From the sequence record OM135583.1: a stretch of 64,000 nt of DNA. One strand, written 5' to 3'. Origin of the DNA: Escherichia phage EP01. This document shows positions 9,088-20,205 of the stretch, piece by piece. Position 1 is the first letter of the stretch, and every line of letters begins with the position of its first letter. A program made the translations under genes and the position numbers. The notes beneath the pieces are model-generated. The model had not been told where the DNA came from, made no database searches, and was given only the letters and a program-made list of their open reading frames with translations.

Positions 9088-10901
9088 TGGTGTTTAATCC
9101 TATGCATGATTTCTTTATTTTTGCCAAGATTAAATCCGCGCTCGTTCGGATTTCCCAAATAGCCACATGTTCTTCTTATTGTGTTCATCTTTTTAGGATC
9201 AGTTTCTCCACAAATAGAACAAACAAATCCGTTTTCAGTAGGAGTCATTTCATGGGTACTTCCACATGTAAAACATTTATCTACTGGCATATTAACACCA
9301 AAATAATCTAAATGTTGTGCAGCATAATCCCATACAGCCTCAAGACCTTTTAGGTTATTTTTCATATCAGGAAGTTCAACATAAGAAATGTGACCACCTG
9401 TCGCAATGAAATGATATGGTGCTTCACGAGAAATCTTTTCAAATGGAGTAATATTTTCTTCTACCGAAACGTGGAAACTGTTAGTGTACCAGCCTTTATC
9501 GGTAACATCTTTTACACTTCCATATTTTTCGGTATCAAGTTTACAGAAGCGGTAGCACAGGTTTTCAGCAGGTGTAGAATACAAACTAAAAGCAAAACCG
9601 GTTCTTTCGGTCCACTGCTTAAGACGAGCATTCATTTTAGTTAAAATTTCTTGTCCAATATCACGACCGACAAGAATATTCAATTCGTGAATACCAATGT
9701 ATCCTAGGGACACTGAACTTCTACCGTTTTTAAATAACTCAATTATGTCATCGTCAGGTTTAAGACGAACCCCGAATGCACCTTCTTGATAAAGAATAGG
9801 AGCAACAGTCGCTTTAACTCCTTTTAAGGAACTGATTCTACACATCAAAGCTTCAAAACATAAATCCATTCGTTCATTGAACAATTCGGCAAATTTCTGT
9901 TCATTGAACTGTGTTCCAATATAAGAATCTAACGCAATTCGAGGAAGATTCAGTGTTACAACACCAAGATTATTACGTCCATCAAGAATTTCATTACCAG
10001 TCGAATCTTTCCATACGCCCAAGAAACTACGGCAACCCATTGGAGAAACAGGAATAGATGAACCAGTGATAGCTTTATTGTTCTTAGCCGAAATGATGTC
10101 AGGATACATTCTTTTGCTTGCACACTCTAGAGCAAGCTGCTTAATATCATAGTTCGGATCGTCTTTATAAAGATTAACACCTTCTTCAACGAACATAACA
10201 AGTTTAGGGAAAATAGGAGTTATCCCGTCACGACCAAGACCTTTAATACGATTTTTCAGAATTGCTTTCTGAATCATTCGTTCAGTCCAGTCAGTTCCCG
10301 TACCAAATGTAATTGTTACAAAAGGCGTTTGTCCGTTTGAGCTAAAGAGAGTATTTACTTCGTATTCATAAGCTTGGAATGCATCGTATACGTCTTTTTC
10401 TGTTTTAGATTGGGCATAATTCAATGCATCAGCGATTTGCCATTTTTCTGCGTCCTCAATATGTTTTGCGTAGGTGCGTTTAACATAAGGAGAAAGGACT
10501 TTATCTACATTCGCAAAAGTCGTTCCGCCATATTGATGGGAAGCAACCTGCGCAGTAATTTGTGCCATAATTGCAGTAGCAACGCCGATTGATTTAGGAG
10601 TTTCAATCTGCGCATTACCGAGCTTAAATCCGTTCTCAAGCATTCCTTTTAAATCTACTAAACAGCAATTAGTAAATGGAAGAGCGGGGGAATAATCAAT
10701 ATCATGGAAATGGATAATTCCGCTTTCATGCGCTTTCATAATAAAAGACGGGACCATATTTTTGGCAATGTGTTTAGACACAATACCAGCCATAAGGTCC
10801 CGTTGAGTTGGAAAAACACGAGAATCTTTATTAGCATTCTCGTTTAAAAGGTCTTTATTAGTTTTATGAATTAATCCTTCAATTTCTTTTTCAATTGTCA
10901 T
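9084..10901 (-). CDS. nrdD: Anaerobic ribonucleoside-triphosphate reductase (glycyl radical enzyme)
   Basis: 605 aa uninterrupted; C-terminal glycyl radical motif RRTCGYLG; Cys-rich zinc ribbon CFTCGSTHE...CSICG. Confidence 0.95.
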   Translation of the reverse strand: MTIEKEIEGLIHKTNKDLLNENANKDSRVFPTQRDLMAGIVSKHIAKNMVPSFIMKAHESGIIHFHDIDYSPALPFTNCCLVDLKGMLENGFKLGNAQIETPKSIGVATAIMAQITAQVASHQYGGTTFANVDKVLSPYVKRTYAKHIEDAEKWQIADALNYAQSKTEKDVYDAFQAYEYEVNTLFSSNGQTPFVTITFGTGTDWTERMIQKAILKNRIKGLGRDGITPIFPKLVMFVEEGVNLYKDDPNYDIKQLALECASKRMYPDIISAKNNKAITGSSIPVSPMGCRSFLGVWKDSTGNEILDGRNNLGVVTLNLPRIALDSYIGTQFNEQKFAELFNERMDLCFEALMCRISSLKGVKATVAPILYQEGAFGVRLKPDDDIIELFKNGRSSVSLGYIGIHELNILVGRDIGQEILTKMNARLKQWTERTGFAFSLYSTPAENLCYRFCKLDTEKYGSVKDVTDKGWYTNSFHVSVEENITPFEKISREAPYHFIATGGHISYVELPDMKNNLKGLEAVWDYAAQHLDYFGVNMPVDKCFTCGSTHEMTPTENGFVCSICGETDPKKMNTIRRTCGYLGNPNERGFNLGKNKEIMHRIKHQ

Positions 10902-13140: not shown

Positions 13141-13383
13141 TTATTCCTTAATTCCTAGTACTTGTTTAAAAGTCTCGTCGTAATCAAGACTTTGACCTGT
13201 TTGTTCTTTATGTTTGTATATAATATCACTTACTTCTGATAGCATATTTTTATATGAACGAGTTAAAGCAGATTTAAGCACGCTGTATCTATCAGGAAAT
13301 TTACCATGTTCATTATAATAAGCTATTGCTAATTCACGGACTGCTTTTTCAGCAATCTCCATATATTCTTTACGCTTTGTCAT
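13141..13383 (-). CDS. Hypothetical protein
   Basis: 80-aa ORF. Confidence 0.6.
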
Positions 13384-13687
13384 TTTCTTCTCGGTTAAAT
13401 CGGTGTTTGCAATGACGACATTTATAACAAAGATTACTAGTCTGCCAATGAACTAATTGTACCTGTTCGGTACCACATTTTGGGCAGTTCGGAACATTCT
13501 TAGAAGCCCTTTCGCGGCGTTCAACCATAACCATAATGGCATCCCAAGCAGGAGGTTTAAAATCTAAATCGTCACAACCATGAATCTTTCCACGCATTTC
13601 CAGATCGTCTTCTTCACCAGCCATAATAATTTTAATTAGACTGGAATTACTTGAAGCTGCAATATCTTCTAATAAGCGCTTTTTCAT
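13370..13687 (-). CDS. Zinc-ribbon protein
   Basis: 105 aa; C-terminal [11 protein letters not shown]...[11 protein letters not shown] four-Cys ribbon. Confidence 0.6.
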
Positions 13688-14613
13688 TTCAATACCTCAA
13701 TAGCATTACGTAAACCATTTGCTTTGGCGGTTAAAGCCTTAAAAACTTTAGTATGCTCTTCAATCTGTTTTTCAACTTCAATTAAGCGTGTATTAAGATA
13801 TTCACGTTCTTCACTCAGGTTATCAACCTTTTCTACTTTAGGTTCTTTTACAACTGGCTTATATGTATTAGGGTTCTTCAGTTTAATTAGAATGCGTGAA
13901 CTGTACAGCATTGAACCATTATCTTCGGTTTCGTCATACATTTCCACTACGTCCATCATCTCCACCATCGTGCAGAGTTTATAAGACAACGAACGAATAG
14001 TTTTGTTATGCTTATTAATTTCTCTAGCTGTCATGGTGCCGAGATTACGTGAGTAATAATAAGGAACCTGGATATTAATTAATACTGATGAACCACCTGG
14101 CTTGTGTGTTACTTCATCAGCAATAACCCAGTCCTTAACATGAACTGTATTTGTACGGTCATCGCCCGCGGTAAATAGTTTACGAGCATGCTTAAAAAGC
14201 ATATTCACTTGGTCATTGAATTGACAAGCGAATTTATCAGCAAATTTAGTTTCAGGAATGGTAGATAACCAATCAGCCAAATGGGTCTTTTTAACATCGT
14301 TAACAATGGTAAATTCAACCAAATCGGTTATAGATGTCGCAGATTTAATGAAGCTCGGCTTCATAAAGTTTTTAATGTTATCACTAGCTACAGTAGAAGA
14401 TAACAGACGAGAACGTTTAAACCATTGAAGCAAATTGCCTAACGAATGAGAATAAGCGTTTTGAGTATCTTTACAGATATGATTTTCCTGCCCAACATAT
14501 TGAAGGAAATCACGAAGAATATTATTGATTACTGTTCTGTGTCCGATCTGATAATTACGGTGTTTAGTAATAAGACTGTCAAAATAATCAATATAATGTT
14601 TACGAGTTTTCAT
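13684..14613 (-). CDS. Hypothetical protein, member 1 of tandem paralog family (C-terminal coiled coil)
   Basis: 309 aa; shares internal motif (YKLCTMVEMMDVV) and C-terminal heptad-rich tail with next three genes. Confidence 0.65.
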   Translation of the reverse strand: MKTRKHYIDYFDSLITKHRNYQIGHRTVINNILRDFLQYVGQENHICKDTQNAYSHSLGNLLQWFKRSRLLSSTVASDNIKNFMKPSFIKSATSITDLVEFTIVNDVKKTHLADWLSTIPETKFADKFACQFNDQVNMLFKHARKLFTAGDDRTNTVHVKDWVIADEVTHKPGGSSVLINIQVPYYYSRNLGTMTAREINKHNKTIRSLSYKLCTMVEMMDVVEMYDETEDNGSMLYSSRILIKLKNPNTYKPVVKEPKVEKVDNLSEEREYLNTRLIEVEKQIEEHTKVFKALTAKANGLRNAIEVLK

Positions 14614-14665
14614 GTTCTTCTCACTTGGTTAATGATTTATGCTCCGAGCCATCCTTGGCTTTAAA

Positions 14666-15667
14666 TTACTTAATTAGCTGTAAAGCTTGTTCCAAACGAT
14701 CAAGGCGATTAACAGATTCTTCCCAAATCATTTTAGCCTGCTCATATTCTTTCTGCGCTTTATTAGAAATTTCTAGAGCATCTTTATAAGCTTTTTCTAG
14801 TGCAATAACTTCTGGACGAATTTCTATCGGTTCAGGTGAATCATCAAGATTATCCATTAGTTCCTCAAGGGTAGTTTCTTCTTTAGGAGTATTCACAATT
14901 TCATCACATTTTTGTTGGTAAATTTCTTTATCAGTCGGTGAATAAGCGCATTTCACTTCACGAAGGCTAATTATAATTTTATATCCTTCCCAACCACACA
15001 TATTCTTAAAAGGATAAGTATGAATATTTTCTACCGTTTCCATACAAAGTAATGCGGTTTCTAATTGACGAGTTATAGTGCTAGCAATTGAGAAAAATTT
15101 ATTAATATTCTTTTGGTTAGTTTCTGGTGTAAAAAATCCATAATTCACAAAAATAGATACTTTATTTTTATCAAGTTCATATTCTTTTATGATAATCATA
15201 TCAGAAGCCAAAGGATGAATTTGACGATAATCGCCATAACATAATTTAGAAGCTGATTTTAGAATCTGTCCTTTGAAAAGTCTGAAATTACTAATCCAAC
15301 GACGAGTAAAAATATTCTCAGGGTCTTCTTTATTATTAAGATGATAAGAATTAACATCACCGAACCAATTATATCCTACTACATCTTTGGTTCGTTTAAT
15401 TTCTTTCCCAAAATTACCAAGAATATCCCGATTAACCAAATATGAAAGAAGACGAGACTCTTTAAAGGTTTTCTTGATAACATCTTTATCTACACGGCTA
15501 GAAATTTTACGAATTTCATGAATAAATTTAGCAGAAGAAACAATACTCGCGTCAACGCTATTGAGCCATTGATTGATAATAGAAATAACGCTATTTTGAC
15601 CAAACACCGGTATAGCTTTATCATCAATAACACTATTGAATGATTTGATATATTCGTTACGAGTCAT
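14666..15667 (-). CDS. Hypothetical protein, paralog family member 2
   Basis: ATG at 15667 with GAGGAG SD (track start 15718 lies inside promoter); motif F..GQILKSASKL and C-terminal coiled coil. Confidence 0.65.
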   Translation of the reverse strand: MTRNEYIKSFNSVIDDKAIPVFGQNSVISIINQWLNSVDASIVSSAKFIHEIRKISSRVDKDVIKKTFKESRLLSYLVNRDILGNFGKEIKRTKDVVGYNWFGDVNSYHLNNKEDPENIFTRRWISNFRLFKGQILKSASKLCYGDYRQIHPLASDMIIIKEYELDKNKVSIFVNYGFFTPETNQKNINKFFSIASTITRQLETALLCMETVENIHTYPFKNMCGWEGYKIIISLREVKCAYSPTDKEIYQQKCDEIVNTPKEETTLEELMDNLDDSPEPIEIRPEVIALEKAYKDALEISNKAQKEYEQAKMIWEESVNRLDRLEQALQLIK

Positions 15668-15693
15668 ATTAATCTCCTCAGTAGAAAGTAAGA

Positions 15694-15726
15694 ACATTAT
15701 ACCACATCCTTGTGGCAAAGTAAACT
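15694..15726 (-). promoter_or_regulatory. T4-type early promoter
   Basis: Minus strand GTTTAC, 18 bp, TATAAT (15701-15696), then GAGGAG SD and ATG 15667. Confidence 0.6.
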
Positions 15727-16753
15727 AGTTCAGTGCATTTAGTGCATTGTTCAGTTTAGAACGTTGCTTCGTAAGATTTTTGACTTTTTCTTGAGCTTTT
15801 TCTAGCATCTTTTCAGCTTCTAACACTTCATTAGTTGCTTTAACTAGTTCATCATCTACTGCTTTAAGAGAATTCTCAATCGCATCTGCATGCCATTTTT
15901 CAACAGGTTTAAGACTCGGATTTTCAACAGGAAGAAAACTCACTTTATTAAGTTTACATGCATCTATATTGCTTGAGCTATACATCCAAAATTTAGGATC
16001 GTTTGATGAGTAATTGGATAAATTTAAATTTAAGTTATCTTGCACTTCCTGCTTTTTCTCTTGCGGGACTTCGTCCTTTCTCAAAAAATCGTATTTAAAT
16101 GAAACGATCATATCAAGTTCATATGTTGTTGTGTCTAATTTAAATCGCTCAAAACGAGGTAAAATCTTAGACTGAACATCGGCAACAACATCCATATACT
16201 TAAATGCTTCTGTCAACTGCGATTTAAGGCATTCGCAAATTGAAAGAGAATTTTTTGTATTAGGTTTAAAGCTAATTCGTGCAGTTCTATTATTTTCTTT
16301 TAATGGTCTTACTTCCATCTGAAGAGTATAACCATCAAATTTCAGATTCTTTAAGTTAATATCAGAACCTTTTAATCGACTCGCAGTTGATAAAATTTGC
16401 TTTAATTGTCTACGGAACAGAGCAATAAATCTCCATTCAATACGATAATGATTTGGATTGAAAAATCCAGATGATAAATCGACCTTACTTTGACCAACGC
16501 CTTGAACAAATAGAGGATTTTTATAATCAATAGTTTTACAGAAATCGGTGAGCTGCTCACGAGCAGTCATTTGCGTAATATACCCTGCTTTACTAAAATT
16601 ACGCACCCATTCACTGCTATTCGTATACTTAAAGTGATGAATAACACGATTAACTTTATCAGGGTCTAAATTATTTTCACACAAAAATGTCATAACATCA
16701 CGAGTATAACTGGCATTACGAACCTTATCTTCAATTTGAGAACGAGTTTTCAT
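15725..16753 (-). CDS. Hypothetical protein, paralog family member 3
   Basis: 342 aa; motif FRRQLKQILSTASRL, C-terminal coiled coil. Confidence 0.65.
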   Translation of the reverse strand: MKTRSQIEDKVRNASYTRDVMTFLCENNLDPDKVNRVIHHFKYTNSSEWVRNFSKAGYITQMTAREQLTDFCKTIDYKNPLFVQGVGQSKVDLSSGFFNPNHYRIEWRFIALFRRQLKQILSTASRLKGSDINLKNLKFDGYTLQMEVRPLKENNRTARISFKPNTKNSLSICECLKSQLTEAFKYMDVVADVQSKILPRFERFKLDTTTYELDMIVSFKYDFLRKDEVPQEKKQEVQDNLNLNLSNYSSNDPKFWMYSSSNIDACKLNKVSFLPVENPSLKPVEKWHADAIENSLKAVDDELVKATNEVLEAEKMLEKAQEKVKNLTKQRSKLNNALNALN

Positions 16754-16761
16754 AGTGTTCC

Positions 16762-17667
16762 TTAAGATTTAAGTAAATCAACAATTTTAATTAATTTTTC
16801 ACGCTCAGATTTAGCTTTATTACTCAATCCAGATAGTCTGAAAATTTCATCGTCATACTGTTGAATAGAAATATTCAGCTCTTCAATTTGCTTATTAAAA
16901 TAATCAATTTGTTCAGAATGTTTTTCATTACTACGAACTGGTACAGGTTTCGTAAGCAATTTAGTTGAACTGGATTCATCCGGGCGATAAATCAAAATAC
17001 AATTTGAACCAATCGGGCATTTTGTACCAGATGAATATTCTAATGTTCCAGCTTCTTTTAAAACTTCAAAAGCTAAACAGAGATGATGCCCCATATTAAC
17101 ATAATCTGTAGAGTGAGCTCTGATGTAATAATCATCTCCACGAATACTAAATTTAAAGCATTTAAGGTCTTCTGTATTATTGGTCTTAAAAATCATTTGT
17201 TTATCTAGACCTTTAGCTAATCGAGCGCCCAATGCTAATAATCGTCGTTGATTTTCCCACAAATCCGCAATCATTTGATCGAATGATAATTTCGGCATTA
17301 GTCGACCATAAAGGTCATATCCTTTATTATAATTACGAAGGATTTCACTCGCATTAATACGAGACAATGCTCCAATTTTATTAAGGGCTTTCATAATGCG
17401 ATTAGATAAACTCATTCCAGATCCGCTTGTTCGCTGTAAATGTTTTTCTAATCCAAAGCCAATATCAACTTTAAACTTATCTAAAATTTCGGCATGAACA
17501 TCTCTGTCAATAACATTCAAATCCAAAGTTGGGTTAAATCTATGAAAAAATTTATCTGGCTCTCCACGACGAAATACAGTCCATTCATTCATCATTTTTT
17601 TATTAACTAAAGATTTAATTACTGCATTGACATTATTAATTACTACTGACATATTTTCCTCACTCAA
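16762..17667 (-). CDS. Hypothetical protein, paralog family member 4
   Basis: 301 aa; motif WENQRRLLALGARLAKGL, C-terminal coiled coil. Confidence 0.65.
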   Translation of the reverse strand: MSEENMSVVINNVNAVIKSLVNKKMMNEWTVFRRGEPDKFFHRFNPTLDLNVIDRDVHAEILDKFKVDIGFGLEKHLQRTSGSGMSLSNRIMKALNKIGALSRINASEILRNYNKGYDLYGRLMPKLSFDQMIADLWENQRRLLALGARLAKGLDKQMIFKTNNTEDLKCFKFSIRGDDYYIRAHSTDYVNMGHHLCLAFEVLKEAGTLEYSSGTKCPIGSNCILIYRPDESSSTKLLTKPVPVRSNEKHSEQIDYFNKQIEELNISIQQYDDEIFRLSGLSNKAKSEREKLIKIVDLLKS

Positions 17668-20163: not shown

Positions 20164-20194
20164 AAAATAAAAAAGGGGACCTCTAGGGCCCCCC
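20164..20194 (-). terminator. Rho-independent terminator
   Basis: Minus strand GGGGGGCCC...GGTCCCC hairpin followed by TTTTTTATTTT; just downstream of stop of 20206..20691. Confidence 0.6.
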
Positions 20195-20205
20195 TTTGTG
20201 TTGAT

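Follow-up and report, generated by a model that had tools for sequence, protein, structure and literature searches.

The segment analyzed here comprises 64,000 nucleotides (nt) of Escherichia phage EP01 (OM135583.1), hereafter the window, and it belongs to a Tequatrovirus (T4-like) genome. We studied an array of four consecutive genes, A to D, which a preliminary description, made from the sequence alone, had interpreted as diverged tandem paralogs of the kind expected for host-interaction or counter-defense proteins. The 3984-nt region that holds the array matched 656 phage records, and the closest were Tequatrovirus isolates with 96-97% nucleotide identity. The flanking open reading frames (ORFs) encode endonuclease VII, the NrdC thioredoxin, and neighboring proteins, and every gene of interest is encoded by the minus strand. 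Gene identities were assigned by comparison with the annotated T4 genome (NC_000866). The four genes were identified as orthologs of T4 nrdC.3, nrdC.4, nrdC.5, and nrdC.6 (Table 1), the gene order across the array was identical to that of T4, and gene C was found between nrdC.4 and nrdC.6. The comparison with the T4 nrdC.x genes, which the preliminary description had proposed, therefore returned long-annotated genes, one of them partly characterized; the paralogy among them is nonetheless significant.

Two gene starts in the mechanical ORF list were corrected. The list had placed gene B at 14666-15718 and gene D at 16762-17667. Gene B was assigned to ATG 15667 instead of TTG 15718, with a GAGGAG Shine-Dalgarno sequence 6 nt upstream and in agreement with the T4 annotation, and the start of gene D was moved to ATG 17652. 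The gene C product matched the DUF7235 model (PF23882) along residues 1-342 with 410.9 bits (cutoff 30; E = 4.8e-123), and genes A, B, and D did not match this model.

For the paralogy analysis, family alignments were built from three large-database searches and from the ORFs of 13 related viral contigs, and they were compared by HHalign. The A and B proteins were linked by BLASTP (25% identity over 271 amino acids, aa), belong to the same PHROG, and reached an HHalign probability of 98% (E = 2e-13). Direct BLASTP among the four proteins linked no other pair. At the profile level, B and C were related with a probability of 81% (E = 1.2e-5). The direct HHalign comparisons of D with A, B, or C were not significant, although the alignment of D with the A-B family placed the same motifs in register. 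A search with the NrdC.6 profile against 1.84 billion representative proteins provided a family of three proteins of 288-345 aa (P0205, P0207, and P0208), termed X, which match both D and C. The comparison resulted in probabilities of 98.6% for X-D (E = 5e-16) and 96.9% for X-C (E = 1.6e-10). When the profiles were merged, [A+B] against [C+X+D] reached 96.9% over 242 columns (E = 1.8e-10). One of the X proteins, P0207, was traced to a 1.9-kb contig only.

The comparisons were repeated after the C-terminal tails had been cut off, since coiled-coil tails can inflate profile scores. The leave-one-family-out comparisons still gave probabilities of 92-97%, with E-values from 1e-7 to 5e-10 over 113-159 columns. 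In this test, C against [A,B,X,D] scored 94.4% (E = 9e-8), B against [C,X,D] 93.7%, [A,B] against [X,D] 93.9%, X against [A,B,C] 94.9%, and D against [A,B,C,X] 96.6%. Single pairs were weaker, with 56% for B-C and 35% for X-C; A alone against [C,X,D] scored 44%, and A was joined through its 98% link to B. The score of D against [A,B,C] dropped to 17% (E = 0.0015) without X, so that the superfamily depends on X as its hub. When the 81 window ORFs with a length of 100 aa or more were ranked by a hidden Markov model (HMM) of X, built without window sequences, D, C, and B came out as the top three, and scanning these ORFs with the family HMMs found no further member. Based on these profile comparisons, the four genes very likely share a common ancestry, with a core homology that spans about 130-160 columns as aligned, more than the one internal block and the C-terminal tail named in the preliminary description. 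The tandem paralogs of the preliminary description were thus confirmed by BLASTP (A-B), by HHalign profiles, and by the X intermediates. Its proposal of a family diversified by duplication was supported as well, but the demonstration needed profiles and intermediate sequences.

The superfamily alignment was produced with MAFFT from 13 representatives, and the three shared blocks and the C-terminal tail were collinear in every protein. Block 2, with the pattern (Q/R)..L..A.(R/K)L..G(D/N).R, was the most conserved feature of the superfamily. All 13 aligned proteins end 0-1 residue after the terminal motif L..A(L/I)..L(K/N), and A, B, and C have a short N-terminal K-T-R-x-E-Y motif in common. The NrdC.6 protein carries, in addition, the highly conserved polar motifs NKGYDLYGR and DKQMxFKTN. 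The internal motif block reported earlier was collinear in all four proteins, but its exact Q-(I/L)-L-x-(S/T)-A-S-x-L form was restricted to B and C. Likewise, the N-terminal two thirds, described as strongly diverged, are so in relative terms, but they contain conserved blocks belonging to the shared core. The heptad-rich tail held up better, as it was helical in both AlphaFold2 models described below. By a simple home-made heptad score, which is not a dedicated coiled-coil predictor, A, C, and D had hydrophobic residues at 7-8 of the 8 a/d positions of their best 28-residue windows, and B was weaker.

Table 1. Genes, shared blocks, and promoter-like site of the nrdC.3-nrdC.6 array (window positions)
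Feature	Gene	Position	Strand	Description or basis
Gene A, T4 nrdC.3 ortholog	A	13684-14613	-	309 aa; 62% aa identity to T4; phrog_1435; PF26897 on A homologs
Gene B, T4 nrdC.4 ortholog	B	14666-15667	-	333 aa; 96% identity to T4; phrog_1435
Gene C, T4 nrdC.5 ortholog	C	15725-16753	-	342 aa; 94% identity to T4, full length; DUF7235 (PF23882); phrog_2351
Gene D, T4 nrdC.6 ortholog	D	16762-17652	-	296 aa; 97% identity to T4 over 259 aa; phrog_2257; PF26899 (Phage_T4_Y05B) on D homologs
Block 1, F-K-x-S-R-L-L-S...N-F helix (LS..A..L.NF)	A	14365-14421	-	MAFFT and HHalign
Block 1	B	15410-15466	-	MAFFT and HHalign
Block 1	C	16541-16597	-	MAFFT and HHalign
Block 1	D	17329-17385	-	MAFFT and HHalign
Block 2, helix then G-D/N-x-R loop	A	14152-14220	-	alignments
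Block 2	B	15218-15286	-	alignments
Block 2	C	16349-16417	-	alignments
Block 2	D	17194-17262	-	alignments
Block 3, L..AL..M(D/E).VE helix between two beta-hairpins	A	13942-13998	-	alignments
Block 3	B	15029-15076	-	alignments
Block 3	C	16181-16228	-	alignments
Block 3	D	17038-17088	-	alignments
C-terminal heptad-patterned helical tail	A	13687-13812	-	alignment, heptad count
C-terminal tail	B	14669-14815	-	alignment, heptad count
C-terminal tail	C	15728-15904	-	alignment, heptad count
C-terminal tail	D	16765-16926	-	alignment, heptad count
Sigma-70/early-type promoter-like site		15696-15724	-	TTTACT-17-TATAAT plus extended TG; consensus match only

The NrdC.6 (D) protein was modeled with AlphaFold2 from an 18-sequence alignment, with a mean predicted local distance difference test (pLDDT) of 76 and a predicted template modeling (pTM) score of 0.65. 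In the model, residues 1-157 are helical and residues 171-227 form a strand-strand-helix-strand-strand unit, which a low-confidence linker connects to a helix-turn-helix tail (251-300) formed by helices 251-277 and 283-300. The loop after the block-2 helix (157-167), which holds part of the conserved G-x-D-K-Q-M-x-F-K-T-N segment, was also of low confidence. The NrdC.5 (C) model came from a shallow alignment of 17 sequences, mostly more than 88% identical, reached a pLDDT of 46, and was left out of the fold search. The exception within this poor model was a 59-residue C-terminal helix (283-341) with pLDDT values of 65-91.

In the Foldseek search of the NrdC.6 model against BFVD, the matches were NrdC.6 relatives and nine uncharacterized Straboviridae proteins of 304-335 aa (E from 6e-8 to 6e-4). 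The phages encoding these nine proteins infect Pectobacterium, Enterobacter, Acinetobacter, Citrobacter, Klebsiella, and Yersinia, and two of the proteins (from IME523 and PM2) were confirmed as X-type by sequence. Against the PDB, the same model found no significant structural match (E at least 0.01; template modeling score at most 0.35), in keeping with the earlier remark that the family could not be placed by eye in any known fold. H-NOX proteins accounted for 14 of the top 50 weak PDB matches (best E = 0.025, probability 0.89) and Bet3/TRAPP proteins for 4, so that an H-NOX, V4R, or Bet3-like fold did not reach significance for this model. The order of helices followed by strand-strand-helix-strand-strand resembles the H-NOX topology. 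The C and D profiles had no match in a sequence search of the PDB, and no enzyme or known domain was matched by the four proteins in Pfam, NCBIfam, PADLOC, or the PDB. Several low-scoring matches, all far below threshold, were discarded as noise: the XerD N-terminal domain for A in NCBIfam (E = 0.0016; 17.7 bits against a cutoff of 279), the PHL and DUF3905 matches in Pfam, and BrxC for B in PADLOC (E = 0.006; 12.6 bits), which fell in the coiled-coil region and was the only PADLOC match. The idea that the inhibitor mimics a capsid protein was likewise unsupported, with no capsid proteins among the BFVD fold matches.

The copy number of the family differs among the T4-like phages. A tblastn search with an X protein located single-copy members in Kanagawavirus, Kosakonia, Edwardsiella, and Mosugukvirus phages. 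In Kanagawavirus IME523 (gp085) and Mosugukvirus PM2 (gp092), the single copy lies between nrdC.9/.10 and nrdC.2/nrdC, which is the slot of the array. Nine T4-like contigs of about 155-172 kb (L007-L015) have the order D-C-B without a separate A; their B-like protein also matches A, and in NrdC.6 they are similar to Dhakavirus and Gaprivervirus phages. All four copies are present in Tequatrovirus. The series of one, three, and four copies in a fixed slot fits the pattern expected from in-place tandem duplication, and it fits nrdC.3 as the youngest copy, derived from nrdC.4. According to this scenario, the family most likely began as a lone gene located between nrdC.2 and nrdC.7-.9, which then expanded in place to three and later four copies. 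The four genes share no DNA-level repeat, and the matches among them were chance ones of at most 28 nt; consequently, the duplications must be old, and a recent duplication or gene conversion is excluded. A search for related loci in viral contigs with the X alignment found none. The gene family appears confined to the T4-like phages (Straboviridae). As a separate observation, Tegunavirus fHe-Yen9-01 (L016) has two dispersed members about 6 kb apart (9459-10337 and 16382-17323), of which gp94 is X-like (E = 1e-10) and gp111 is a BFVD fold match that is weak by sequence.

In pairwise comparisons with six relatives, the ratio of nonsynonymous to synonymous substitution rates (dN/dS) was 0.1-0.37 for the four array genes, whereas the neighbors 49, nrdC, nrdC.8, nrdC.9, and nrdC.10 had ratios of 0.0-0.1. 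These values indicate real, functional coding genes under purifying selection, which change 2-5 times faster than their neighbors, and the array shows relaxed or diversifying evolution. The nrdC.3 gene occurs as two deeply diverged allele classes with 62% aa identity. Gene A belongs to a class divergent from T4 nrdC.3, with conserved ends and a diverged middle, and its synonymous divergence was about 0.9 against T4 and about 0.15-0.18 against other isolates. The genes flanking the divergent alleles are 94-99% identical, and such deep divergence amid near-identical flanks points to allele replacement by recombination. The adjoining nrdC.2 (13370-13687) is also unusually variable, with 70-95% identity, which suggests a recombination cassette that may cover both nrdC.2 and nrdC.3.

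Natural isolates also carry disrupted or rearranged copies. A frameshift splits nrdC.4 into two ORFs of 193 and 158 aa in a 169.6-kb viral contig (L006, 7965-8997), and in phage T2 (H43) nrdC.4 matches in three pieces; both copies are probably pseudogenized. A 299-aa protein from contigs of about 167 kb (P0056) fuses NrdC.5, from residue 146, in frame to NrdC.3, from about residue 136. The underlying deletion removed nrdC.4 and parts of both neighbors, joining the window equivalents of about 13684-14210 and about 15950-16320. The junction is out of register with the paralog alignment and therefore looks like illegitimate recombination. The NrdC.6 of Shigella phage Sf25 (P0058, 378 aa) carries about 82 aa (IRAHSTDY...QIEEL) twice, as an internal tandem duplication. 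Finally, 1 nt is deleted in nrdC.6 of the T4 reference, GAGCTG-ATATT against GAGCTGAATATT in the window (window 16762-16900 compared with NC_000866 9975-10150). The resulting frameshift shortens the protein from 296 to 275 aa with the loss of the conserved C-terminal helical tail, and it is either a laboratory-strain mutation or an old sequencing error. Such frameshifts, fusions, duplications, and allele swaps are typical of accessory genes under fluctuating selection.

The functional evidence for the array comes from T4 nrdC.5. An evolved T4 clone with deletions lost plating on ECOR17, and deletion of dsr1 in ECOR17 restored it (Srikant, Guegler & Laub 2022, eLife 11:e79549, PMC9391042). Conversely, cloned ECOR17 dsr1 protected MG1655 from the T4 deletion clone, and T4 nrdC.5 supplied in trans from a plasmid restored infection (PMC9391042). 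The authors called nrdC.5 an uncharacterized early gene that overcomes Dsr1 and offered no mechanism, and their strain table lists no plasmid with another nrdC.x gene (PMC9391042). According to a 2026 Nature paper, the Dsr1 sensor shares homology with that of Avs7 and recognizes a phage major capsid protein as its trigger (PMC13581612). In our literature search, the nrdC.5 result was the only functional data for nrdC.3-.6, and no mechanism for NrdC.5 was found.

We consider it likely, with good confidence, that gene C is a functional anti-Dsr1 ortholog. Because nrdC.5 is a published anti-Dsr1 gene and nrdC.3, nrdC.4, and nrdC.6 are its paralogs, these three genes become candidate counter-defense genes, a role that their accessory status and evolutionary rate also suggest. 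The chance that at least one of them acts in counter-defense is, in our estimate, slightly better than even. The counter-defense role expected in the preliminary description hence stands as published for nrdC.5 (PMC9391042), to which gene C is 94% identical, and extends by inference to the other three. Taken together, these four ancient tandem paralogs probably, though with modest confidence, form a panel of non-enzymatic proteins that are expressed early and inhibit host immune proteins.

Each gene is predicted to encode a soluble protein, about 300-340 aa long, that has a variable helical N-terminus, a conserved core, a variable linker, and a helical tail. The core would consist of the block-1 helix, the block-2 helix-loop, and the strand-strand-helix-strand-strand unit, and the 45-60-residue C-terminal tail probably mediates oligomerization. 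The proteins were modeled as stoichiometric inhibitors because no enzyme or known-domain signature was found in them. NrdC.5 would neutralize the SIR2-type NADase Dsr1 by direct binding, occupying or locking it before the late trigger, the capsid protein, appears. With this scaffold, the three paralogs would target other defense proteins or other sensor variants. Our confidence in this specific binding mechanism, which is modeled on an analogous system, is lower than in the counter-defense role itself. As a speculative and rather unlikely extension, the ancestral single-copy protein may bind a capsid-sensing sensor of the Avs7/Dsr1 type, and the four Tequatrovirus specialists that arose from it by duplication may each match a distinct variant or effector fusion of this widespread sensor family, or other pattern-recognition defense proteins. 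If true, this sensor-blocker panel would represent a new fold and the first multi-paralog inhibitor family of bacterial pattern-recognition receptors.

Three other explanations were weighed against the proposal of an inhibitor set. The four genes may be true paralogs of which only nrdC.5 acts in counter-defense, while the others use the oligomeric scaffold for different early roles, such as host takeover or the modulation of host transcription, nucleoid, or metabolism. This is possible but, in our judgment, not the probable case. It agrees with the literature, which yields a function for nrdC.5 alone, and with the great age of the paralogs, whose identity below 25% leaves ample time for functional divergence. 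NrdC.6, with 45-50% identity across genera and many invariant polar residues, also looks more like a housekeeping-accessory protein than a participant in an arms race. However, natural isolates show all four genes to be dispensable and readily frameshifted, fused, or replaced by other alleles; the genes also change faster than their neighbors, and the array sits where accessory anti-defense genes of T4 are known. A further reading, which we regard as improbable, takes the conserved core for a small-molecule-binding or enzymatic domain, possibly H-NOX/V4R/Bet3-like, that acts on a metabolite or signal. The recurrent weak H-NOX and Bet3/TRAPP matches of the NrdC.6 model, the order of its helices and strands, and the strong conservation of the polar motifs in NrdC.6 speak for it; against it, none of those matches reached significance. 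Still less probable is that only nrdC.3 and nrdC.4 are true paralogs and that the likeness of nrdC.5 and nrdC.6 reflects composition and convergence on amphipathic helices and a coiled-coil tail. The direct B-D and C-D scores, which are not significant, the weak tail-less values for B-C (56%), X-C (35%), and D against [A,B,C] (17%), and the three separate families in PHROGs and Pfam speak for such convergence. Against it stand the tail-less leave-one-family-out probabilities, which persist at 92-97% over 113-159 columns, and the blocks, which align in one order in every independent comparison. The X HMM also selected D, C, and B as the best of the 81 window ORFs without window sequences, and the four genes, which are similar in length, lie side by side on one strand in a position that a single X-type gene occupies in other genera.

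Several points weigh against the interpretation as an inhibitor set. The functional support for nrdC.5 is one complementation experiment, performed in T4 and not in this phage, and without a mechanism. Gene D is tied to A, B, and C, by sequence comparison, through the X intermediates only (direct 17%, E = 0.0015), and the shared architecture of the family, as predicted, depends on one model (NrdC.6) and on alignments. The overall dN/dS is well below 1 and is not direct proof of an arms race. Moreover, the NrdC.6 motifs NKGYDLYGR and DKQMxFKTN could equally fit a catalytic or ligand site as a protein-binding surface.

Other features of the region were recorded. The promoter-like site in Table 1 lies directly upstream of nrdC.4, inside the 57-nt gap after the nrdC.5 stop codon. 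Upstream of nrdC.10, a strong terminator-like hairpin (20171-20197, minus strand) has 11 pairs, six of them G-C, followed by a T-run, and early-promoter-like sites occur near it at 20246-20219, 20143-20115, and 18701-18673. The nrdC.2 gene (13370-13687, minus strand) encodes a C-terminal CxxC...CxxC zinc ribbon, with weak matches to the zinc beta-ribbon of PaaD, at E = 6.6e-5 and under the Pfam cutoff, and to a PHROG labeled 'NrdC-like thioredoxin'. The label 'thioredoxin' is wrongly given to the entire nrdC.x block in many database records.

The genes and the nrdC.5 phenotype were already known, and the system as such is not new. The superfamily link, the series of one, three, and four copies in a fixed slot, and the counter-defense prediction for nrdC.3, nrdC.4, and nrdC.6 appear to be unreported. 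For the superfamily, this judgment follows from the three families kept in Pfam and PHROGs and from the literature search, which returned nothing relevant for DUF7235, the Pfam families, anti-Dsr1, and the protein accessions. As a consequence, nrdC.3, nrdC.4, and nrdC.6, so far without an assigned function in the best-studied phage T4, become paralogs of the anti-Dsr1 gene nrdC.5, and three 'hypothetical proteins' can now be tested. The results suggest that DUF7235, PF26897, and PF26899 should form one Pfam clan. If the prediction is correct, the array would be an example of a counter-defense repertoire that grew by in-place duplication instead of by acquisition of unrelated genes. In T-even phages used for therapy, differences in host range may be due in part to the alleles and copy numbers that distinguish this block.

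Among known systems, the closest is T4 NrdC.5 (DUF7235) itself. Gene C is its ortholog, with a full-length match at the same genomic position, whereas A, B, and D are distant paralogs that share the block order and the C-terminal tail but fall outside DUF7235 with less than 25% identity. The database families PF26897 (NrdC.3/NrdC.4 type), PF26899 (NrdC.6 type), and DUF7235, and PHROGs 1435, 2351, and 2257, stand as separate families of unknown function, and they were merged here into one superfamily by profiles and intermediates. A functional analogy can be drawn with DSAD1, the SPbeta anti-DSR2 protein, which is likewise a phage protein that neutralizes a defense-associated sirtuin NADase. 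It is reported to repress DSR2 and to counteract activation by the tail tube (PMC10973363, PMC10981675, PMC11087589), and it serves as the model for the proposed action of NrdC.5. It differs in that its target DSR2 senses the tail tube, whereas Dsr1 senses the capsid protein, and in that it comes from a Bacillus siphophage. No sequence or fold relation to DSAD1 turned up in our searches, none of which was aimed at DSAD1. Finally, the T4 genes tifA, dmd, adfA/61.2, ipI, and ipIII each disarm one host system and underlie the 'anti-TA island' (toxin-antitoxin) idea (PMC9391042). Like the array, they are non-essential, clustered, early or injected, and easily deleted. These genes are mutually unrelated in sequence, whereas nrdC.3-.6 are adjacent paralogs of one scaffold that expanded in place.

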